In this document: piece after piece, positions 2,800-64,000 of the stretch
Position numbering within the stretch: the first letter of the stretch is position 1
How the letters are laid out: every line of letters starts with the position of its first letter
Assembly: GCA_964527925.1 (NCBI GenBank)
Contig: CAZGQO010000001.1
Span: 324,808-388,807 of the forward strand
Reading direction: 5' to 3'
Source of the DNA: an uncultured Ignavibacteriaceae bacterium
Lineage (GTDB): Bacteria; Bacteroidota; Ignavibacteria; Ch128b
Length of the DNA stretch: 64,000 bases
Notes under the pieces: model-generated
Told to the model about the DNA's origin: nothing
Seen by the model: the letters and a program-made list of their open reading frames with translations, nothing else
Database searches by the model: none
Made by a program: the position numbers and the translations under genes

Positions 2800-4242
2800 C
2801 TAACTATTGAATGTAATTTTTTTCAACAAAGACACAATCAAATTTTTCTCATTCTCTTTTAAGAACAGGAAATAAGTGACAGTACAATATAAACTCAGAA
2901 AAACCAGAATTTCAATTATAAAGTGAAAGTTGAAAAGCAAATAAATCGAATAAACAATAATTAATGAGCTTAAGAAAAGGAATAGATTATTCAAATTTAA
3001 TAACCAATATCTGAACTCTTTGATCATATATGAAAAGTAAACAACTCCAACCAGCAAATTTACAATCAAAGAAACAGCAGCAGCTCCTTTTGTTAGAAAG
3101 CGGGGAATAAAATAACTATTCAATAAAACATTTAGAAGACTTGCACCAATGACTGTGTACATTCTAACAATCTGTCTATTTGAAGTAGTCAACATTAAAG
3201 CAAATGGTTCGAGTAAAAATCTGATAAACAAAGTAATTGCAAAAATTCGCAAAACAGGGATTGCATCAAAATAATTTTTTGCACCATAAATAAGATTAAT
3301 AATTGAATCAGAATAAAAGAACAGAATCAATGATATAGGAATAATAACCATGAATAAAACTCTTCCCATCAAACTTCCTAACATTATCCACTCATCCTTC
3401 GATTCCTTGTGGAGTTTTGAAAGTGTTGGCATCATTGAATTAATCAAAATATCCGGAATAACTAGGGGCAACAGAATCAATTTCATAACAGATTGATATA
3501 TTCCAACTGAATATTCTCCACTTAGCTTAGCCAGCAATAAAGTATCGATTTGAAAAAACAAATAGCTAAAGATGAGATGTAGTCCAAAAATCAAAACTTT
3601 TGATTTTAATAAACCAAATTCTTTAAAGTCAACTTTAATTTTGAGTTTACCAGTTAATTTTATCAGGTAGTAAATATCAAAACCTAATCCAAGAAATCTT
3701 GAAAACATAAATGCAATTCCGAGCACCAAAATATCAACATTCAAGAAAAGAAGAATGATAATTGTCACAATCATAATTCCATTTGAAATGAGAGAAACTC
3801 GAGTTTCGAAAATGAATTTTTCAAATCCTCTAAAAACTCCATAGAAGAAATTACTTAACGATGTGAAGACAAGATAAAGAGCAAATACAACGATTAAATT
3901 AAAGTATCTTTGACCCAAAGGGAAAAGTTGTGAAAGTAAAAGCATCAAAACAAAAGCCAGGAAAACAAAAATCAACTTTACACTTAACAGCTTTTGAATT
4001 ATTTCATTTTTATTTGTCCGTGTAGTTGATATTTCTGTAATGAGAAGAACATCCAGTCCAAAATCTGCCAGAATAATTAAAGTAGTTGCAAGCGTGTGAG
4101 CAAATGTAAAAATTCCAAACTGCTCAGGTCCATAAAACCTCGCCATCAACCAGAAGACAAACACATTCGCAAACAATCTTGATGAGATTGTTATAGTTGA
4201 ATAGAATGTATTTTTCTTCACAACAGATAAGTAAGGACTCAT
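2800..4242 (-). CDS. wzx: Polysaccharide flippase (Wzx, MOP superfamily)
   Basis: 480 aa with about 12-14 TM segments and MOP-like topology. Flanked by GT and polymerase genes. Confidence 0.6.
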   Translation of the reverse strand: MSPYLSVVKKNTFYSTITISSRLFANVFVFWLMARFYGPEQFGIFTFAHTLATTLIILADFGLDVLLITEISTTRTNKNEIIQKLLSVKLIFVFLAFVLMLLLSQLFPLGQRYFNLIVVFALYLVFTSLSNFFYGVFRGFEKFIFETRVSLISNGIMIVTIIILLFLNVDILVLGIAFMFSRFLGLGFDIYYLIKLTGKLKIKVDFKEFGLLKSKVLIFGLHLIFSYLFFQIDTLLLAKLSGEYSVGIYQSVMKLILLPLVIPDILINSMMPTLSKLHKESKDEWIMLGSLMGRVLFMVIIPISLILFFYSDSIINLIYGAKNYFDAIPVLRIFAITLFIRFLLEPFALMLTTSNRQIVRMYTVIGASLLNVLLNSYFIPRFLTKGAAAVSLIVNLLVGVVYFSYMIKEFRYWLLNLNNLFLFLSSLIIVYSIYLLFNFHFIIEILVFLSLYCTVTYFLFLKENEKNLIVSLLKKITFNS

Positions 4243-5420
4243 TTTTTAGATAAAAGATTTTCGTAAAGATTTACTAATTGATTAAAATAATTCTCAGAAT
4301 CAAAATTGGTCTTAGCAAAATTGTAACAGTTTCGAGAATATTCTTCATAATCTGAATCAGCTAAGTTTGATGTCATTTCGATTACACTTTTTAAACTCTC
4401 AACATTCTTTGCTTCAAACTCAAAACCATTTTTTCCATTATCAAGGAGTTCTTTCAAACCGCCTAAGCCTGATGTGATAACCGGTTTACTAAAGGACATT
4501 GACTCAACTGCACTCATAGGAAAATTTTCATAACATTCTGAAGGAATAATAACGAAATAAGATTTTTTAATTAGCTCTTCTAATTCTTCACCTTCCTTGA
4601 AACCGAAATAATGAATATTTCCATTTGCATTAAATTCATTTATCAAACTTGAAAATGGTCCAGTTCCAAGAATTACTAATTTTTTATCAGGCAATTCTTT
4701 GAATGCTTGAAGTAAAGTTAAAATCCCTTTTTCTCTATCGAGTCTTCCAAAATAAAGATAATAATCACCTTTTATAATTTCTGAATCAAAAGTATGGTTA
4801 AAGTTATACAAAACAAAAGATTTATTTTGAATTTTAGGTTTGAATGTCAAAAATTTCTGTTTCGTGAAGTTGCTGACAAAAATGTATGCGTCAAAATATT
4901 CTGTGTGAGGTAATAAGAAATCTCTCAAGTAACTTTCAGTGACAACCATCGCACTCTTCATCAATCCATCGGGATGACAATTTTTAACTAATCCATAAAA
5001 ATAGTTTGAACCCCCGCATTTCTCACAAATATCTTTATTACTATCAATCATCACACTGACCGGACAAAGTAATCTAAAATCGTGTATTGTAGCAGCAATT
5101 GGAATTTTGAATTTTTTTATTTCTGGAAGAATAGAAAAAGTTATCCCACCTACAATATTATGGATGTGAATTATATCTGGTTTATCAGTTTCTAGGATTT
5201 GTTTGATAACTTGTTTTGCTGAATAAGAATAGAATCGATTAAAAAAAAATTGCCTGTCTTGAATTACATAATCAGAGAAACTAATAGAATTAATGGAATG
5301 AAATCTCGATAAAGTTTTAACAGTGAAGCCTTTAGATTTTAAAAGTTGATATAAATTAAAAAAAACTTTTTCGGCACCTCCACGATTAAAACCATAATTA
5401 TTTACAAGTAAAACTTTCAT
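4239..5420 (-). CDS. Glycosyltransferase family 4
   Basis: 393 aa. C-terminal motif ESMSFSKPVITSGLGGLKELL with the E-x7-E GT4 signature region. Confidence 0.8.
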   Translation of the reverse strand: MKVLLVNNYGFNRGGAEKVFFNLYQLLKSKGFTVKTLSRFHSINSISFSDYVIQDRQFFFNRFYSYSAKQVIKQILETDKPDIIHIHNIVGGITFSILPEIKKFKIPIAATIHDFRLLCPVSVMIDSNKDICEKCGGSNYFYGLVKNCHPDGLMKSAMVVTESYLRDFLLPHTEYFDAYIFVSNFTKQKFLTFKPKIQNKSFVLYNFNHTFDSEIIKGDYYLYFGRLDREKGILTLLQAFKELPDKKLVILGTGPFSSLINEFNANGNIHYFGFKEGEELEELIKKSYFVIIPSECYENFPMSAVESMSFSKPVITSGLGGLKELLDNGKNGFEFEAKNVESLKSVIEMTSNLADSDYEEYSRNCYNFAKTNFDSENYFNQLVNLYENLLSKK

Positions 5421-54826: not shown

Positions 54827-56843
54827 CCGTTTTACCTTTTCTCAATTCCATCAATTTTTTAACATGGTCTGGAAGTTCTTCTTCTTTATGATTATTTTTT
54901 TTCACAGGAGGCAACTCTTCACCATGAATTAACTTTTCAATTTCTTCGTTATCAAGAATCTCTCGTTCAAGTAAGTTTTTGGCGAGACGATGTAAAATAT
55001 CAATGTTATCTCTTAAGATTTTTTCAGCTCTTTGCATGCAGCTATTTACAATGTTTTGAACTTCCTGGTCAATCAACTGAGCTGTTTTTTCACTCACTTC
55101 TTGATGTCTTGTAATTTCTCGACCAAGGAAGAGTTCTTCTTCACGACTGCCATAAGCAATTGGTCCAAGTTTTTCACTCATTCCCCATTCGCAAACCATT
55201 TTTCTTGCAATTTGAGTAACTCTTTCTATATCGTTGCCAGCACCAGTTGTAAATTCATTAAAGATTAAAAGCTCAGCTGCACGTCCGCCAAGTGCATAAG
55301 TCATCATCGCAAGCAAGTATGATTTCGAATAAGTATGTTTTTCATCGATTGGAAGATAAGTTGTAACGCCAAGTGCTCTTCCGCGTGGAATGATTGTAAC
55401 TTTGTGAACCGGATCAGCTTCAGGAATCATTTTAGCAACAAGGACATGACCACTTTCGTGATAAGCAGTCATTTCTTTTTCTTTTTCGGAAATGATCAAA
55501 CTCTTTCGTTCCATTCCCATCATTACTTTATCTTTCGCTTCTTCAAAATCTTCCATATCAACATATTTTTTATTCTTTCTCGCAGCAAGAAGAGTTGCTT
55601 CATTTACGAGATTGGCAAGATCAGCTCCGGAAAGTCCTGGTGTGCCCTTCGCAATGACTGAAAGATCAACATCAGGAGCCAGAGGAATTTTTCTTGTATG
55701 AACTTTTAGTATTCCTTCTCTTCCTTTTACATCAGGACGATCAACAACAACCTGACGATCAAATCTACCTGGTCTTAGCAATGCAGGATCAAGAATATCA
55801 GGTCTATTCGTTGCGGCAATAATTATTATTCCATTATTCGGTTCAAAACCATCCATCTCAATTAATAATTGATTGAGAGTTTGTTCTCTTTCATCATGTC
55901 CACCGCCAAGACCAGCACCTCGCTGTCTTCCAACAGCATCAATTTCATCAATGAAAATTATACATGGAGCGTATTTTTTTCCTTGCTCGAATAGATCTCT
56001 AACTCTGCTCGCACCAACACCAACAAACATCTCAACAAACTCTGCACCAGAAATTGAAAGGAATGGAACTCCAGCCTCACCTGCAACGGCACGAGCAAGT
56101 AATGTTTTTCCTGTTCCTGGAGGACCCAATAACAAAACTCCTCTTGGAATTCTTGCACCAAGTCGTTGAAATTTTGAAGGTTCTTTCAAGAACTCAATAA
56201 TTTCTTGTAATTCTAATTTTGCTTCGTCACAGCCAGCAACATCTTTGAAAGTTACTTTTGGAAGATTCTCGGTGAAAATTCTTACACGACTTTTGCCGAA
56301 GTTGAAGATTCCTTTTGTTCCACCAGTGCCACCCTGCATTCTTCTCATGAAAAATATCCATAATCCAAAAATTATCAACCATGGAAGCAGAGTCATTAAT
56401 GCTGTCCACCACGCAGAATCTTTTTCTTCAAATGTAAAATTAATTCCTTTCTCGTTCCAGACTTTAATGTTATCGGGTGAACCAGCTTCTGGCAAGAAGA
56501 CTACAAATTTTTTTGTTCTTATTGTTCGATTTGCACCGACATTAAGATTTTCTTCCTGTTTTAACTTTCCGTGAAAGTAGTAGTTATTAATTTCTGATTT
56601 TTTGATTACAGCACTTTCAATTTTATTTTCATTAAGAAGTCGCTGATATTCGTTATAAGTTATTTCCACTTCCGCCATATCCCCGGAACGAAACATTTGC
56701 ATCACAATTAAAGCAGCGACAATTACTCCGCCCCAACCGAATACGGTTCTTAAGATCTTTGACCAATCAAAATTTTCATTGTTTTTGTTTGGTTTGTTAT
56801 CGGGTGAATTATCTTTATTATTTTGTTTTTTGTTGTCTTCCAT
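54789..56843 (-). CDS. ftsH: ATP-dependent zinc metalloprotease FtsH
   Basis: 684 aa. Two N-terminal TM helices, Walker [26 protein letters not shown], zinc site HESGHVLVA. Confidence 0.95.
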
Positions 56844-56855
56844 ATTTTCTCCAAT

Positions 56856-57413
56856 TCAACTCTTTAAAGCGTATATTGATCTTAAATTTCTATATTTCTG
56901 AGTATGGTCTAAACCATACCCTATTACAAATCTATTAGGAATTTGAAATCCGATGTAGTCAAGCTTAATATCGTATTTAGTTGCTTCAGGTTTATGAAGT
57001 AAAGTAACAATTTTTATGCTCTCTGGTTTCTGTGATTCTATCAAGTTTTTCATATAAACAATTGAAAGACCTGAATCCACAATATCTTCAACTATAATTA
57101 CATCTCTGCCTTTAATATCTGCATTCAATTCTTTTATCAGTTTCACATTTCCGCTTGAGATTTTTGCGTCTCCATAACTTGATAATTTCAAAAAATCTAC
57201 TTCACAATCAACAGAAATGTTTCTGATTAAATCGGCAAAGAAGATGACAGAACCATTAAGGACACCAATAAAGATTGGTACTTTTTTCACATAATCTTTA
57301 CTAATCTCTTCGCCTAATTCAGCTACTCTCTTTTGAATGGTTGGTTCATCGATTAAAATTTCAAAAGTTTCACCATTAACAACAATTTCTTTTGCGTTAA
57401 ATTTCGAAATCAT
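56856..57413 (-). CDS. hpt: Hypoxanthine-guanine phosphoribosyltransferase
   Basis: 185 aa. PRPP-binding VIIVEDIVDSGLS. Confidence 0.85.
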   Translation of the reverse strand: MISKFNAKEIVVNGETFEILIDEPTIQKRVAELGEEISKDYVKKVPIFIGVLNGSVIFFADLIRNISVDCEVDFLKLSSYGDAKISSGNVKLIKELNADIKGRDVIIVEDIVDSGLSIVYMKNLIESQKPESIKIVTLLHKPEATKYDIKLDYIGFQIPNRFVIGYGLDHTQKYRNLRSIYALKS

Positions 57414-58797
57414 AATTTATTCTCGCTTTTATTACTCGTTTAGTTTCACTGGTGACTTTGTATTTTTCAGAAAGTCTTACACCAACAACCCAAATTATCT
57501 CATTTCCATCACAAAGAACAAGAATTTGTTTCTTGAATAAAGCAGGGACTTTTGCATCAGTGAGCAAATCACTAACTTTTTTCGAATACTTCATACCTAA
57601 CGGAACAAGTTTATCACCAGGTCTCCAATTTCTTAAAATTAATTTGCCTTTAATTTTTTCTTCATCAAAAAATTCGACTGAAGAATTATCTGATAACTTA
57701 ACTTCTTTCACTAATGCTGAACTTATCTTGAATTCAAAATAACTTCCGTAATATTTCTGCAATTTTGAATCGTAGGTAATCGAAATGTTTACTTCTTCAA
57801 ACTCGGGGATTGTTAAGATCAAAATAGAAGCTGATTCTCTTAACGCAACAATTTTATCGGTTATCTGAATTGTAGTTCCTTTGTCCTGTTTGATTAGATT
57901 AATTATCTCCTTAGTTTTATCATAACCGAGTGAAAGATTAAATTGAATTTCAACTTTCTTTCTCACCATATCCATTATGATGTAACTTTTGTAATCAACA
58001 CTCTCTTCGAGACGAATTCTAAGCATCTTATCGACTTTTTTCGAAACAAACAATTTTTCAAACTTTTCTGATTCCTTCTCAATATATTTTTCAAGTAACC
58101 AGAGGAGTTGTGCCGTAGAAAGTAAAGTTTCGTGAAGGTTAGGATTTAATTCCTGTAATAAAGGAATGATTTTGTTTCTGATAAAATTCCTTGTGTATTC
58201 TTCATTGAAGTTTGTTTCATCAATTCTAAACTCTAATTCTTCTTCTTTCAGGAAATTTGTTATTTCATCTTTAGTGAGACAAAGCAATGGTCTTATAATA
58301 TTATCTCTTTTTGCAGGAATTCCTCGCAAGCCTGATACACCGCTACCTCGAGCAAAATTGAAAATCATAGTTTCAACATTATCGTTGAGTGTATGTCCAG
58401 TTGCAATTTTATTTGCACCAAATTTCTGAGAGGCTGCTTGAAATAGTTTGTATCGTTCTTCTCGTGCAGTCTCTTCAATACTCTTTTTTCTATCTTTAGC
58501 TAATGTTGCGATATCTTTCTTTTCGACTAATAATCCTATCTTGTTTTCTTTACAGAAATTTTTTACAAAAAGTTCGTCATCATCAGAGTTTTTGCCCCTT
58601 AGTTGATGATTCAAATGAGCCGCGTAAATTTTTAAGTTGAATAAACTCTTGATTATTAGTAGAAGATACATCAAAAAAGTAGAATCTGGTCCTCCACTGA
58701 AACCGACAACAATTGAATCATTATTTTTGATCATTTCGTTGTCTCTGATGAATTTCAGAACTTTTTGAACTATGGCAGAATTAATTCTTTTTTTCAT
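57397..58797 (-). CDS. tilS: tRNA(Ile)-lysidine synthetase
   Basis: 466 aa. PP-loop VVGFSGGPDSTFL. Conserved tilS-hpt-ftsH gene order. Confidence 0.85.
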   Translation of the reverse strand: MKKRINSAIVQKVLKFIRDNEMIKNNDSIVVGFSGGPDSTFLMYLLLIIKSLFNLKIYAAHLNHQLRGKNSDDDELFVKNFCKENKIGLLVEKKDIATLAKDRKKSIEETAREERYKLFQAASQKFGANKIATGHTLNDNVETMIFNFARGSGVSGLRGIPAKRDNIIRPLLCLTKDEITNFLKEEELEFRIDETNFNEEYTRNFIRNKIIPLLQELNPNLHETLLSTAQLLWLLEKYIEKESEKFEKLFVSKKVDKMLRIRLEESVDYKSYIIMDMVRKKVEIQFNLSLGYDKTKEIINLIKQDKGTTIQITDKIVALRESASILILTIPEFEEVNISITYDSKLQKYYGSYFEFKISSALVKEVKLSDNSSVEFFDEEKIKGKLILRNWRPGDKLVPLGMKYSKKVSDLLTDAKVPALFKKQILVLCDGNEIIWVVGVRLSEKYKVTSETKRVIKARINYDFEI

Positions 58798-59692
58798 AAG
58801 TTAAATTCTTCATATAGTCATAGATTTGTTTTGAAACTCTTGCAATAGTTTCTTTTCCTTTTGTTGCATCTTCAAGTTCTTTAGATAAAATCACCAGTAC
58901 ATATTGCTTACCATCTGGGAGAAAAACTATTCCGCTGTCATGTTCAACCTTTGATATACTTCCTGTTTTGTGAGCAACTTTGACATCTCCTGGTAAATAT
59001 TTTGGAATTTTATCATTGAATTTTTGGTCCATCAAAATTCTAATCATTGCATCACAATCTTTTTCAAATAAGATTTTCTTTTCAGCAATCAAAAGATAAA
59101 GTTTCATCAAACTCAGAGCATCGGTAATATTGTTTAATCCAGCTTCATAAGCTTTGATGTCTTCAACACCACGCAGGACTTTTAAGTTTTCTATTCCTAA
59201 ATTTTTCATTGTTTGATAAACTTTATCAGCACCAACTAATTCAATCAAAAGATTTGTAGCTAAATTACTGCTTACAGTAATCATATCATATACTAAATCA
59301 TATATCTTGTGTTTTTGACCGATCAATGAATAAAGTTTATCATCACTATCACTGGAAAGATCAAGACTATAGGGTGATCCATCCACAATACTTTTAAATT
59401 CATTCTTAACAAGGATAGAATCATCGAGAGAAAATTTGCCCTCGCCAGCCTGTTTGAAAACTTCTATCATCACAGGAGTTTTCATCGTGCTTGCGGCATG
59501 AAAAATAATCGACTCGTTGATTAAAATTTGATTTTCCGAATTGCCAATTTCCTGGAAAGCAACAGCGAAAGTACCAGCAGTGGAGCTTAATTCTTTTTCA
59601 ATATTTTGTTTTAATGGATTCAAATTAACCTGTGAATGAATTTGATTTACAAAAGCAAGCATAAAAAAAAATATTGAAATGTATACTCTCAT
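58781..59692 (-). CDS. Class A beta-lactamase-like periplasmic serine hydrolase
   Basis: Start refined to MRVYISIFFFMLAFVNQIHSQ (signal peptide). SxxK = HAASTMK, SxN = VSSNL, KTG = HKTGS. Omega-loop Glu166 context not canonical. Confidence 0.6.
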   Translation of the reverse strand: MRVYISIFFFMLAFVNQIHSQVNLNPLKQNIEKELSSTAGTFAVAFQEIGNSENQILINESIIFHAASTMKTPVMIEVFKQAGEGKFSLDDSILVKNEFKSIVDGSPYSLDLSSDSDDKLYSLIGQKHKIYDLVYDMITVSSNLATNLLIELVGADKVYQTMKNLGIENLKVLRGVEDIKAYEAGLNNITDALSLMKLYLLIAEKKILFEKDCDAMIRILMDQKFNDKIPKYLPGDVKVAHKTGSISKVEHDSGIVFLPDGKQYVLVILSKELEDATKGKETIARVSKQIYDYMKNLTYEKKN

Positions 59693-59702
59693 AAAATATT
59701 GT

Positions 59703-60176
59703 TTATCTTGAAATCTCAAGAATCTGAAGTTCAATCAATCCTGCAGGGACATTTACTTTAACAACATCCCCGACTTTTTTCCCGAGCAATTGCCTGCCAA
59801 TAGGACTGTTGATTGACATTTTACCGTTTTCAAAATCAGCTTCTTCAGGAGAAACGAGATGATAGATTTGTTCTTTATTGGTTTTAAGATTTTTGACCTT
59901 AACTTTTGTAAGAACTCTAACTTCATCTGTTGAGATTGAATTTGTATCGATTATTTTAGCACGAGCTAGCATACTTTCAAGTTTAGCAATTTTAAGTTCG
60001 AGCAATCCCTGTTCTTCTTTGGCAGCATCATACTCCGCGTTTTCTGAAAGATCACCGTGAGTCCGAGCTTCAGCAATTTTTTGAGCTATTTCTTTTCGAC
60101 CACGAATTTTTAAGTCATTTAATTCTCTTTCGAGTTCGAGTAGTCTTTCTCTTGTCATATAAATGTAGTCGTTCAT
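59703..60176 (-). CDS. greA: Transcription elongation factor GreA
   Basis: 157 aa. N-terminal coiled coil with acidic tip (DLSENAEYDAAKEEQ) and C-terminal FKBP-like domain. SD AAAGAGG 7 nt before the ATG. Confidence 0.9.
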   Translation of the reverse strand: MNDYIYMTRERLLELERELNDLKIRGRKEIAQKIAEARTHGDLSENAEYDAAKEEQGLLELKIAKLESMLARAKIIDTNSISTDEVRVLTKVKVKNLKTNKEQIYHLVSPEEADFENGKMSINSPIGRQLLGKKVGDVVKVNVPAGLIELQILEISR

Positions 60177-60200
60177 ATTGAAAACCTCTTTAAACTTGTT

Positions 60201-60235
60201 GGGACACTATAAAAAAATTAGCCACTTCCTTAAGG
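60201..60235 (-). terminator. Intrinsic terminator in the greA leader (GraL-like attenuator), about 25-60 nt upstream of the greA ATG
   Basis: Minus-strand RNA: UUAGCCAUUUCC-cuuaa-GGAAGUGGCUAA (11-bp stem, one mismatch) followed by UUUUUUUAU, then the SD and ATG of greA. Confidence 0.55.
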
Positions 60236-60359
60236 GAAATGGCTAATTCTCAGTACAAACTTAGTGAAAGGTCATTTTATTAGCAAATGATTTTTAAGGA
60301 TGTGATAATTGGCGAATTTAATTTGTGTTCATTTGCGTAATTCGTGGTTGGAAATGTTT

Positions 60360-60377
60360 AGCCGCTAATTCACGAAT
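60360..60377. repeat. 18-bp direct repeat AGCCGCTAATTCACGAAT, copy A (second copy at 61837-61854)
   Basis: Identical 18-mers in the same orientation, 1,477 bp apart, flanking the COG1373 ATPase pseudogene. Copy B forms a perfect 10-bp hairpin (cgctaattca / tgaattagcg). Confidence 0.5.
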
Positions 60378-60547
60378 TTTTTGCTGTAAAAAAGCAAATC
60401 TAGTTTTAATTTTTTCTTAACATCACTTTGATTTACGCTAAAATCTCATAAAGTATAAATTTATTTCAATACTAAATCTGGTTTTATCATAAATATAAGA
60501 TTTTATATTTTTTATGATTATCAATATAAATTCATTCAGATTGATGA

Positions 60548-61682
60548 TTACTTTAGTTCCAGCAGGAATTCCTCAGCGGGAACAATAGAAATTCCATCTA
60601 TTAACAATCTTTCTTTTCCACAATAAATAAGGAATCTCTTAGCTTCAGGATAATCTTCACCAAATGATTTGAGTGATCTTAACATTTGTGGATGAATCGT
60701 ATTGGTGTTTTTCACCTCTATTGCATAAAAAATATCTTCGTCATAAATAACAAAATCTATTTCATCTCCAGAGAAAGTTCTCCAATAGTATAGCTTCGCA
60801 TCTGGATGAAAATAATCAATCCATGCTCGTAGATGTTGCGCTACAAAACCCTCAAATGCAGCACCTGATTTTTCATCAGGTCTATCAAGAGGACCAGAAG
60901 GTCTAAGCGTATTATAAATACCCGCATCAAAAAAATAAAATTTAGGATGGGAGGCTACATTCCTTTTCATCCTTCGCGAAAATATGGGAACTCTATGACC
61001 TAAAAGTAGGTCTTCTAAAATTGTGATATAGCCTTCAACTACTTTACTTTCTATCTGACACTCTCAGGCTACACTACTGATATTTAATACAGCACTATGA
61101 GAAAAGCTAATTGCTTCTAAAAATCTTGTGAAGTTTCCAATATTTCTTGTAAGTCCTTCCATCTGAACTTCTTCTTTAACATAAAGATTTACATAAGCGT
61201 GAAGTGTTTATTTTGGATCCTCACTCCTAAAAATGAGAGGAATAGTACCTATTTGTAAGGATCTGTCCAGTTCAAATTTTTCTTTGAGTTCAGCTGCAAC
61301 AAAAGGGTGCATTTGTTTTAATTAATGCTCTACCAGCCAACAAGTTCACACCTCCCTTTCGTAGTTTGCGAGCACTTGAACCTGTCATTATAAACTGAAT
61401 GCCTCGCTTTTCTTCAATTAAACTGTGGACTACTTCGATAAGCTGTGGTGCTTTTTGTATCTCATCTATGACCACTGTCTTTTTATCTTTATGAGCTTCA
61501 ACTAATTCTTTTAATCTTTCTGGTCGGGCAGTGTAGTTCCTGTAGACATCAGGAAACAGCAGGTCAACATAGATTGCATCAGGGTAATTTTGTTTAATAA
61601 AAGTAGATTTACCTGTTCCCTAAGGTCCGAAAAGGAAGAAACTATTTTTTTCTGGTTTTAATAATCGTTCTATTAATTCCAT
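60548..61682 (-). pseudogene. Disrupted COG1373/DUF4143 AAA+ ATPase gene
   Basis: N-terminus MELIERLLKPEKNSFFLFGP*GTGKSTFIK has a TAG stop inside the Walker A motif. VVIDEIQKAPQLIEVVHSL...FIMTGSS AAA region follows, then at least one frameshift and two more in-frame stops. The C-terminal DUF4143-like part (track ORF 60548-60970) is in another frame. Confidence 0.65.
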
Positions 61683-61836
61683 TTTTAGTCCCATTTTGGA
61701 ATCATCACTTCCAAAATTAAGCTAAATTTTGATAGTATTAAAAATTTTTAATACTTGAAAGGGTAGATCAATGAATCTAATTTTTGATATTAATAAACTC
61801 AAATAAATAATGATGCAATGTATGGTTAATCATTTC

Positions 61837-61854
61837 AGCCGCTAATTCACGAAT
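61837..61854. repeat. 18-bp direct repeat AGCCGCTAATTCACGAAT, copy B (hairpin-forming)
   Basis: See copy A. Hairpin stem 61840-61849 / 61858-61867 with an 8-nt loop. Confidence 0.5.
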
Positions 61855-62010
61855 ATTTTGAATTAGCGTTCTAACGGTCATAATTCTTTTTTATTTGATT
61901 TATAGAGCAAGATTATTGAAATTGATGAATTTAAAAATTGAAACTCATATTACCTGAATAGTGGATACTCATTCCAGATTTTAACCCTAAAAAATCTGCC
62001 ATTTTCTGTC

Positions 62011-62680
62011 TTACTTCTTTTTACTTCGTCTGCACCCCAACTGCCCCATTGTTTGAAAAAGCAAGCAACATTTTGTTGTTTGCACTGATAAAAAATTTCT
62101 TCAACCTACAGTTGTTTTATTGGTCTTGCTTGCCGTCCAGATTCTCCACCAACTATCGTACAATGAATTCCATTTAAATTTAATTTACCAACTGAACCTA
62201 TAAGTGGTTCAAATGAGATAAATCTTACTTTTGCTTTTATTTTTTTTAAAGAATCTATCCTTTTCTTGAATGTTGCATTCTCAACGCTAACACCCAACCA
62301 AACATTTTCGAGCACTTTTCTATCGGAAAAATGCTCTACCATTATTTTATCCCGCTTTGTCAGAATTTGATAAATATGCTGTGGAGTCTTTCTAATTACA
62401 TCAAAAATCATATCCAGATATTCAAAAGGCATTTCTTCATGAAAAAGATCACTCATTGAATTTACAAAAAATTTAGTCGGCTTTTTAATTTTCAATGGTT
62501 CTTCAAGTCTGTGTACAAAATTTTGAATTTAAAACCATCTTTATAATCTTCTAATCCCATTGACTTTAATCTATTTGCAAGGACTTCTGCATAACAAAAC
62601 TTACAACCTGCAGAAACTTTATCACATCCAATAGAAGGATTCCATACTTTTTCTGTCCATTTGATTTTTGTGGTCTTCAT
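62011..62680 (-). pseudogene. Frameshifted phage Gp37/Gp68-family (PF07505/DUF5131) gene
   Basis: MKTTKIKWTEKVWNPSIGCDKVSAGCKFCYAE (family N-terminal signature) is in one frame and the ...CTIVGGESGRQARP segment in a second. The C-terminal ...CLLFQTMGQLG (FFKQWG-like) part is in a third frame. Confidence 0.6.
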
Positions 62681-62765
62681 AAAATTTTGCTTTCTAATAT
62701 AGATATATACATTATATTTGTAGTAATCCAGAATATCTGGAGGTGGAAGGACTTAAAATCCTTTG

Positions 62766-62786
62766 CCCCGAGAAATCGGGGTTTTT
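62766..62786 (+). terminator. Orphan plus-strand intrinsic terminator (CCCCGA-gaaa-TCGGGG + TTTTTATTTTT)
   Basis: Perfect 6-bp GC-rich stem with a GNRA-like loop and a T-tract on the plus strand only. There is no plus-strand CDS upstream. Confidence 0.4.
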
Positions 62787-62790
62787 ATTT

Positions 62791-63577
62791 TTACGGCAAA
62801 AGTTTTATTCCATATCCTTCAACATTGCCAGATTTACCCCTATAATATTTTTTCTCAATCACATCAATAATTTTATCACCAAATGAATATTTTTTTCCTT
62901 CATTTATTTATACCATATTTTCTAAACATATACCTTCGTGATGGATGGGCAATCAAATCTGCCAATTGTAAGCAGGAGATATTTAATAGTTTAGTCTTTA
63001 CTTTTAATTCTTTACTTGTCAATCAATTCTGAATTCGTTTAGCTTCAATAAATTGAGTGCCATCCATAAAAATGCTTGTGTAAGATTTTTTTAATCTCAT
63101 ATCTTCTTTACCCCCGCGTGATTCCACCATTACCTCACCTGTGGAATTATTTGCATCAAGAAAAAAGAAAAAACGTTCTAGAATAATTTCCAAACAATAA
63201 TGATAAGGATCATATTTCCATGTATGATATTTAGTTTTGTGTTCCAGTTTATCAAGTAAAACTGATATAACTACAAATTTTAAGTCAGATAAAAGTGCGA
63301 GAAAATAAGATTCAAATTTATTGTTTATTTCCTCATCTCTTAAGACATTAAAAGGATACCTTTTATTAACAATATCTTTTCTATGAAGAATTACAGGTTC
63401 ATCAGGATGATATGGGAAATATTTTTGCTTTAACTTTTCTAATTCTGGTGTGACTGTTGATTTGACATAATCCAAATCGAAGATTAATCCAGTTAAGCTC
63501 AAATATCGGTGATTAGGATCAATAGAACTATCTAAATCGTTATTTCCTACTTCATCAATATAAGTTCTATATTTCAC
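62791..63577 (-). pseudogene. Frameshifted DUF3800-family gene
   Basis: The 184-aa ORF starts MKYRTYIDEVGNN (a DESG-like motif). The conserved C-terminal LADLIAHPSRRY motif and the terminal ...KKYYRGKSGNVEGYGIKLLP segment lie downstream in two other frames. Confidence 0.4.
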
Positions 63578-63623
63578 AGGATAAGTGTTTTATTAATTTC
63601 TTTAAATAATTTATAAATCCTTT

Positions 63624-64000
63624 TTAACTTCTTTTGGATAATATTGAAATTAATTCTCCAATGTTCTTATTTAATTCTTTAAAATATTTTTCTACTACAG
63701 ACTCATATTCCGGCAATAAACGGTTAAAAAATTGGTCTATTGTGAGTTCTAATTTTTGTGATAATTTTTTCCCAGTCAAATTTTCATAGTCTAATGTTAT
63801 TAAATATTTCGTTGGAATCTTATTTTGTTTGTAAAGTTTAGAAGACTTTGAAGTTAATCCTACCAAAATACGATATTCTCTATTTGGGGCTAAGTGTATA
63901 CCCATTTGATTAATTGCATTTTTCAAAAAATAGTCTTTGATTTTTTCATCTACTAAATCAAGGTCTGGGGTTATAGTTAATGTTATATTTTTTGCAAGGC
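63624..64000 (-). CDS. Hypothetical protein (partial; ORF open to the window end)
   Basis: The frame continues upstream of the track Met with no stop up to position 64000 (..LAKNITLTITPDLDLVDEKIKDYFLKNAINQMGIHL..). No recognisable domain. Confidence 0.3.
   Translation of the reverse strand, partial: LAKNITLTITPDLDLVDEKIKDYFLKNAINQMGIHLAPNREYRILVGLTSKSSKLYKQNKIPTKYLITLDYENLTGKKLSQKLELTIDQFFNRLLPEYESVVEKYFKELNKNIGELISILSKRS

Follow-up and report, generated by a model that had tools for sequence, protein, structure and literature searches.

A decaying patch of accessory genes beside greA in an Ignavibacteria genome and an apparently intact candidate small RNA within it

The DNA analyzed in this work (the window) is a stretch of 64,000 nucleotides (nt) from contig CAZGQO010000001.1 of an uncultured Ignavibacteriaceae bacterium (GenBank assembly GCA_964527925.1). 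Next to greA, close to one end of the window, lie three adjacent minus-strand genes that are all disrupted, encoding an ATPase with AAA_14 and DUF4143 domains, a DUF5131 (Gp37/Gp68) protein and a DUF3800 protein; they are followed by part of a membrane-protein gene and accompanied by a candidate small RNA gene that is convergent with the DUF3800 gene (Table 1). The lesions were located by translating the minus strand in three frames, aligning the repaired readings with 13 intact homologues and placing the flanking peptides in the DNA. On these alignments, they are marks of genuine pseudogenes of accessory genes beside intact housekeeping genes. Three of the four genes in 60177-64000 are disrupted as compared with none of the 45 long open reading frames (ORFs) elsewhere in the window (Fisher p = 2e-4), and an earlier note on this DNA, made from the letters alone, was thus right in seeing three neighboring pseudogenes amid intact housekeeping genes. 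The 45 long ORFs span 92% of 1-60176, and the guanine-plus-cytosine (GC) content of the window is 32%.

The repaired reading of the ATPase gene matches PF13173 (AAA_14; 2e-20, residues 14-132) and PF13635 (DUF4143; 8e-33, residues 172-325), that is, an N-terminal AAA_14 P-loop domain precedes DUF4143 as in COG1373-type proteins. Its 377 amino acids (aa) are collinear with those of intact 377-aa homologues, to which identity reaches 79%. The earlier description of this gene, a TAG codon inside Walker A, at least one frameshift and two further stops, was reproduced exactly by three-frame translation and alignment. The Walker A arginine lost to the TAG codon is invariant across the 13 aligned homologues and, judged by its reading frame, the pseudogene cannot yield its protein. 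It matches the PADLOC single-gene candidate PDC-S01 at 8e-51. The intact homologues are solo genes in unrelated neighborhoods, and DNA similarity to them starts about 30 nt before the start codon and stops at the stop codon.

The repaired DUF5131 reading matches PF07505 from end to end (profile positions 1-243 of 243, 298 bits, 5e-89). This gene had been described as split over three frames; it is indeed disrupted, by one frameshift and one stop codon, but only two frames are involved. It corresponds to component B of the PADLOC candidates PDC-M41 and PDC-M30 (PDC-M41B/M30B, 1e-97 to 1e-102) and strongly matches a phage family, phrog_2045, to which PHROGs assigns no function (1e-78), while its closest relatives are chromosomal genes of Ignavibacteria or Melioribacter. 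In locus L090 an intact DUF5131 gene is preceded by a TcmP gene (TIGR04474, 136 bits; PDC-M41A, 1e-97), with which it overlaps. When the L090 TcmP protein was searched with tblastn against window positions 58000-65722 (those beyond 64000 belong to the extension described below), neither a TcmP partner nor a remnant appeared at E values up to 1; the same search did detect TcmP remnants in locus L089. There, a TcmP pseudogene (L089 7448-8001) lies upstream of an intact DUF5131 gene, and in locus L097 an intact DUF3800 gene with its RNA is followed by a DUF5131 gene that lacks the first 33 profile positions (4069-4689). As read from these two loci, partial decay of the DUF5131/TcmP gene set is recurrent.

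In the DUF3800 pseudogene the N-terminal IDEVGN (DE motif) and the C-terminal QLAD (QxxD motif) are both present and conserved in the alignment. The statement that its LADLIA motif lies in a different frame from the N-terminal motif proved wrong: LADLIA is in the same frame as IDEVGN and is separated from it by the in-frame TGA codon, and the 4-nt duplication is the sole frameshift of the gene.

Table 1. Features of the decayed patch and its greA flank; positions are those of the window unless another locus is named.
Feature	Position	Strand	Basis and remarks
greA, intact	59703..60176	-	157-aa ORF; Pfam GreA_GreB_N + GreA_GreB on identical product; housekeeping flank of the patch
greA promoter-proximal leader	60211..60263	-	TAAGTTTG box 60256-60263; hairpin 60218-46; U-run 60211-17; proximal edge of the decayed patch
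D3a, 27-nt direct repeat copy	60357..60383	.	Repeat search; between ATPase stop codon and greA promoter
DUF4143/AAA_14 ATPase pseudogene, 377 codons	60548..61682	-	Pfam; alignment with intact homologues
ATPase lesion, in-frame TGA	61064-61066
ATPase lesion, in-frame TAA	61208-61210
ATPase lesion, +1 frameshift	61316		Extra A within an A-run
ATPase lesion, TAG	61620-61622		In place of Walker A arginine (GP*GTGKST; homologues GPRGTGKST)
D3b, second 27-nt repeat copy	61834..61860	.	25/27 identical to D3a; upstream of ATPase pseudogene
DUF5131 (Gp37/Gp68) pseudogene	61950..62680	-	Pfam; alignment with 13 intact homologues
DUF5131 lesion, in-frame TAG	62106-62108		TGG to TAG; W192 in all homologues
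DUF5131 lesion, -1 frameshift	62514-62515		One base lost inside a Pro codon
Candidate small RNA gene, apparently intact	62713..62792	+	Folding, conservation, covariance model; convergent with DUF3800
RNA upstream box	62713-62720	+	TATATTTG
RNA body, ~65 nt	62723-62792	+	P1 UCCAG/CUGGA; linker GGUG; P2 GAAGGA/UCCUUU; terminator; U-run
RNA terminator hairpin	62766-62781	+	CCCCG/CGGGG, then U-run ending at the DUF3800 stop codon
RNA copies in other loci	L089 9742-9811; L097 3784-3860; L101 1044-1112; L095 2262-2334		Also about 20 IMG/VR loci (L112-L144)
DUF3800 pseudogene, GTG start codon	62791..63577	-	Pfam PF12686 5e-12; alignment with 13 intact homologues
DUF3800 lesion, +4 frameshift	about 62904-62911		4-nt tandem duplication downstream of LADLIA
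DUF3800 lesion, in-frame TGA	63023-63025		AGA to TGA; R185 in homologues
C-terminal piece (153-aa ORF) of ~205-aa membrane-protein gene	63624..64000, ORF to 64085	-	Alignment

One might attribute the lesions to errors of sequencing or assembly, or to artefacts of a mixed-strain consensus in a metagenome-assembled genome, since the source is evidently metagenome-derived and one frameshift lies in an A-run and another in a G-run. This explanation is nevertheless extremely improbable. Logan contigs from SRR11582148, SRR11582147 and SRR11582145, recovered by exact-protein look-up and covering 55145-61764, 61528-65722 and 53023-65722 of the window and its extension, match the window gap-free with 4, 1 and 2 mismatches (99.94-99.98% identity), and every lesion is present in them. 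Read errors are ruled out because contigs from three other, separately assembled runs share the same lesions. The earlier worry about homopolymer errors is answered by these read sets as well; only two of the four frameshifts lie in a mononucleotide run, seven of the eleven lesions are base substitutions, and the intact state of all 45 neighboring genes likewise speaks against error. The genes have moreover accumulated substitutions at columns that are invariant in the 13 homologues, 15 in the ATPase (1-7 in intact homologues), 9 in DUF5131 (0-6) and 8 in DUF3800 (0-5), so that each dead gene carries two to four times more such changes than its intact relatives, an excess that is the expected mark of relaxed constraint. 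Expression of full-length products by recoding, be it stop-codon readthrough, programmed frameshifting or an altered genetic code, is a still fainter prospect, favored by nothing except the full-length collinearity of the repaired frames. The 45 intact genes of the window end in TAA (21 times), TGA (20 times) and TAG (four times), and all three codons also occur as in-frame lesions; because all three terminate ordinary genes here, an altered code is excluded. Furthermore, the frameshifts (+1, -1 and +4) share no slippery motif, and the stop at the Walker A arginine as well as the replacement of several other invariant residues argue against a functional product. No intact copy closer than 77-84% identity was found among 5.8 billion clustered proteins for the ATPase, DUF5131 and DUF3800. 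The SRR11582148 contig departs from the window at four positions, 55155, 60393, 60769 and 61527: two inside the ATPase pseudogene, one intergenic near D3a and one in 5.4 kb of intact genes.

Two of the contigs, L002 and L088, extend the locus by 1722 nt, up to window-equivalent 65722. The partial ORF starting at 63624 does continue past the window, as the earlier note had proposed, and so does the decay, with two more broken genes in the next 1.7 kb. The 153-aa ORF is preceded in the same frame by a 52-aa ORF with a transmembrane segment, and since both align jointly along the full length of rare proteins of about 200 aa, they represent one gene cut by a stop codon (window-equivalent 64095-97; start about 64253). 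This membrane-protein family is rare, with 16 clusters among 1.84 billion representative proteins. Next comes a gene for a four-helix-bundle protein with a suffix domain (TIGR02436 + TIGR04258), in which a stop codon and, within a G5 run, a frameshift interrupt the reading; correction of the latter extends the TIGR04258 match from 1-34 of 49 positions (47 bits) to 1-48 of 49 (76 bits). It is followed by an intact 179-aa ORF without family match and, at the far end, by 46 codons that close a gene matching annotated N-6 DNA methyltransferases at its C-terminus (E = 2e-7). Within these codons both independently assembled contigs end at the same base (65722), a coincidence that points to a repeat or a strain-variable segment immediately past this point. 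A 32-mer taken from the end of the extension had no exact match in JGI metagenomes.

Altogether, eleven lesions, seven nonsense mutations and four frameshifts, are spread over five genes in 3.9 kb. Their density, 2.8 per kb, is uniform from gene to gene (chi-square p = 0.96). As 5.9% of the single-base changes in these genes would be nonsense changes, the seven nonsense codons would correspond to roughly 1-3% neutral divergence since constraint was lost, and selection on the whole patch would seem to have been relaxed over roughly the same period. A mutational signature was rejected because C-to-T or G-to-A changes do not explain every stop: A-to-T changes gave TAG from AGG and TGA from AGA, and two other stops require two steps.

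On the other flank, the last intact minus-strand genes toward the patch are ftsH, hpt, tilS, a gene resembling class A beta-lactamases and greA. The relatives of GreA identify the host as a member of the Ignavibacteria; the top match among the GTDB species representatives is 73% identical, a value too low for the species itself to have an entry there. Ignavibacteria relatives share the order greA-(bla)-tilS-hpt-ftsH. On the patch side of greA, gene content is different in each related genome examined, and the patch thus lies at a synteny break. A TAnnTTTG box, a hairpin and a T-run about 35 nt ahead of the greA start form a layout that is conserved in Ignavibacteria relatives, and a GC-rich hairpin with a T-run was found 20-40 nt upstream of the greA start in nine related loci (L003, L004, L005, L007, L009, L010, L012, L013 and L014). 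These elements would be consistent with an attenuator-type leader, and the layout may resemble the terminator-containing greA leader GraL of E. coli.

We consider it likely that the patch, from the greA promoter to at least 65580, is a variable accessory-gene hotspot that was filled piecemeal and is decaying neutrally. The hotspot would start near the greA promoter (about 60290), would reach window-equivalent 65580 or beyond and would have received defense-type or selfish genes one after the other. In minus-strand order these would be the methyltransferase gene of which only the tail is seen, the gene for the 179-aa ORF, the four-helix-bundle-suffix gene, the membrane-protein gene, DUF3800 with its convergent RNA, an orphan DUF5131 gene and a solo gene for an ATPase-nuclease. 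Selection would then have lapsed, leaving five of the six recognizable protein genes with one to three nonsense mutations each and four of these also with one frameshift, and the broken DNA would not yet have been deleted. The defense-type content consists of the PADLOC candidates PDC-S01 and PDC-M41B and the methyltransferase C-terminus. A mosaic origin is put forward because the ATPase homologues are solo genes in unrelated contexts, because similarity ends at the gene edges and because the genes on this side of greA vary; the patch thus appears to have been assembled from more than one acquisition. Several points weigh against this interpretation. Lacking a closely related intact or empty version of the locus, the order of acquisition and the boundaries are not directly shown, the even lesion density would equally fit one co-acquired block released from selection at once, and the intact state of the 179-aa ORF and the RNA means that not all of the patch is demonstrably dead. 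In addition, the three supporting runs have adjacent accession numbers and probably sample one population, so that the state described here may be population-specific. Alignment to relatives, proposed earlier as a check, did deliver intact homologous genes but did not define insertion boundaries, as the relatives carry unrelated genes at this position; neither an empty nor an intact version of the locus was found in them, the closest representative (GreA 73%) spanning just 733 nt on the relevant side.

The earlier note had interpreted the segment as a decayed mobile or phage-derived island. The decay of accessory genes and its extension past 64000 stand, but a single mobile or phage island is not supported. 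If the patch went back to a single integrated mobile element or prophage, acquired and decayed as a block, with integrase and att sites farther out or deleted, the common direction of all genes and the uniform lesion density would be readily understood. The DUF5131 family is common in phages (phrog_2045, 1e-78), the order DUF3800, RNA, DUF5131 recurs in another Ignavibacteriaceae genome (L097-L099), and the break of two independent contigs at the same methyltransferase base could mark a repeat. We nevertheless regard such an origin as unlikely. As noted earlier, no integrase or tRNA is visible in the window, and the suggested search beyond 64000 found no att site, tRNA or integrase up to 65722 either: Pfam, NCBIfam and PHROGs scans of the ORFs of 60177-65722 gave no integrase or recombinase, ARAGORN detected no tRNA either in the window or in L088, which reaches 1.7 kb past it, and the span from greA to 65722 has neither a tRNA or transfer-messenger RNA (tmRNA) target nor att-type direct repeats at its two ends. 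Genes for phage structure or packaging are equally missing up to 65722, the only notable PHROGs matches being phrog_2045 (DUF5131) and a weak one to phrog_9607. The sole flanking repeat brackets the ATPase gene only, the component genes have different nearest relatives and a GC content of 0.25-0.35, and L089 has DUF5131 and DUF3800 in the opposite order. About equally doubtful is a scenario in which inactivation was selected rather than neutral, with costly or self-toxic defense genes being knocked out serially, for example after loss of the TcmP partner. DUF5131 is normally part of a two-gene unit with TcmP (L090), no such partner exists here, and the broken TcmP gene in L089 and the truncated DUF5131 gene in L097 indicate that partial decay is recurrent. 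Several lesions per gene at even density are, however, what neutral decay predicts, and a fitness cost is conjecture for these genes.

A compositional island was rejected, since the GC content of the three pseudogenes in the window (0.29-0.35) falls within the range of the housekeeping genes (0.28-0.37). The repeat that brackets the ATPase gene, D3, is the only significant direct repeat; its 18-nt core has exactly two occurrences in the window as compared with 0.07 expected. It was rejected as a component of the ATPase unit because it is missing from five intact ATPase loci. Its 25-nt core, CAAAAAATTCGTGAATTAGCGGCTA, has one exact match in the JGI metagenomes (L094 61-85), located in non-coding intergenic DNA of an unrelated contig with 49% GC and not linked to other ATPase loci. 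A protein-gene remnant was discarded as an explanation, the repeat encoding short peptides without Pfam match and the L094 25-mer lying outside any ORF, as was a widespread element, given this single metagenome match, none in viral contigs and matches at chance level only in plasmids.

The candidate small RNA gene lies in the 110-nt gap between DUF3800 and DUF5131, in which a 70-nt stretch is 90% identical to the DNA right after the stop codon of the intact DUF3800 gene of L089, whereas the DUF3800 proteins of the window and L089 are only about 74% identical. The element follows every retrieved DUF3800 gene of this subfamily, in four Ignavibacteria lineages and in a viral lineage (37% protein identity). 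Identity to the window copy amounts to 83-90% of nucleotides for the RNA, 70-76% for the DUF3800 coding sequence and about 50-60% for the flanks; by this comparison the motif is more conserved than the gene it accompanies. The upstream boxes read TAnnTTTG in all four Ignavibacteria copies and are TATAAT-like in phage copies, and every copy tested has a three-hairpin fold as its predicted minimum-energy structure (z-scores -1.9 to -3.2). That the motif might code for a short peptide was rejected, since the copies compared show no conservation of the frame downstream of its GTG.

The core AATCCA-N(3-9)-TGGAGG does not occur anywhere else in the 1.5 Mb of collected loci. Over IMG/VR, a degenerate pattern that leaves the 3' arm of P2 unspecified retrieved 35 loci, about 24 of which have a complementary P2 3' arm, in most cases together with a TATAAT-like box about 8 nt upstream and a terminator. 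The Infernal covariance model R2 scores members at 37-55 bits (the window copy at 45.6 bits, 62723-62765) and pattern-only matches at 26 bits or less. The alignments used were anchor-based and covariance-model alignments; those made with MAFFT were discarded, being out of structural register. Two pairs are changed on both sides: the fifth pair of P1 is G-C in 11 sequences, C-G in four and A-U in one, and the third pair of P2 is U-A in all four GAUGG sequences and A-U elsewhere. Altogether 93.5% of the cells are paired as compared with 62% or less when the partners are slid. Support for the predicted structure is moderate, as most pairs are invariant and the sequences were gathered by a sequence pattern. 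Rfam 15 gave no match at the motif, neither for window positions 60100-64000 at E values up to 10 nor for six related loci at E values up to 1-5, and no DUF3800 RNA model had a match in L095, L100, L101 or L002 at E values up to 1; a sub-threshold DUF3800-VIII match in phage locus L144 (31 bits, cut-off 40.2) lies about 200 nt off the motif.

In phage contigs the RNA motif is often found upstream of terminase or capsid genes, and no DUF3800 was detected near these copies by tblastn or by Pfam scans of selected neighboring ORFs. Because the motif occurs there without detected DUF3800, its role is probably broader than partnering this protein; any idea of function built on the GGAGGUG sequence of the RNA is speculation. 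It is tentatively proposed, with considerable reservation, that a new family of small RNAs of phages and mobile elements is present, with a layout of promoter, P1 UCCAG/CUGGA, an invariant GGAGG(U)G linker, P2 and terminator, which in Ignavibacteria would be the obligate partner of DUF3800 (a twelfth class) and would here be outliving its protein. Two motif-bearing phage contigs (L117 7382-7974 and L129 12512-12583) contain tRNA genes and one tmRNA-like segment within about 1 kb of the motif. In eight runs (L103-L110) a contig of 1.06-1.11 kb with one identical DUF3800 protein ends 199-201 nt after the stop codon; such recurrent short contigs would be expected if gene and RNA formed a discrete unit in varying contexts.

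Taken as a whole, the pseudogene cluster is a case of ordinary gene decay, the routine turnover of accessory and defense-type genes at a chromosomal hotspot, and the locus is better annotated as five pseudogenes than as a string of short hypothetical ORFs. Lesions in metagenome-derived genomes can be checked against independent public assemblies, as was done here. The RNA motif is the only part of the finding that deserves follow-up: DUF3800 proteins are turning up beside Cas12a2/a3, Cas13 and retron systems, and a simple two-part module of protein and RNA would be convenient for studying the role of the associated RNAs.

The patch resembles defense and accessory islands in that PADLOC-candidate genes are co-located with a DNA methyltransferase gene on the variable flank of a housekeeping gene, and in that genes are gained by transfer and lost via pseudogenes. 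It differs in that it contains candidate families only (PDC-S01, PDC-M41B) and no experimentally established system, and in that almost the whole patch is dead at once. The ATPase shares the full collinear length of 377 aa and the solo position with COG1373-type AAA_14 + DUF4143 ATPases (PDC-S01), DUF4143 being listed among the PD-(D/E)XK families (PMC3424549), but in the window copy a stop takes the place of the Walker A arginine, and two further stops and a frameshift are present besides. Likewise, the DUF5131 gene corresponds to its counterpart in the TcmP-DUF5131 unit (TIGR04474; PDC-M41), with an end-to-end match to PF07505 and a match to PDC-M41B, and departs from it in being broken and in having neither an adjacent TcmP gene nor a remnant of one. 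Both domains of the four-helix-bundle + suffix proteins (TIGR02436 + TIGR04258; 23S rRNA intervening-sequence protein family) are present beyond the window, in a gene that is here cut by the stop codon and the G5-run frameshift.

DUF3800 proteins have an RNase H-like fold (PMC7736814, PMC10910872) and have been associated with mobile elements, retrons and Cas12 or Cas13 loci (PMC5737381, PMC7736814, PMC10910872, PMC13594972). Eleven unrelated DUF3800 RNA motifs, I-XI, have been described near the gene in either orientation, several of them ending in a terminator (Weinberg et al. 2017, PMC5737381). The window RNA differs from these in having no Rfam match, DUF3800-I, -VIII and -IX included, and in occurring also in phage contigs where DUF3800 was not found. 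On the other hand, it has a DUF3800 gene as its neighbor, is encoded on the other strand and is predicted to end in an intrinsic terminator, a layout given in the 2017 paper for several of its motifs. It thereby fits the pattern of the DUF3800-associated RNAs, of which it may constitute a further class.

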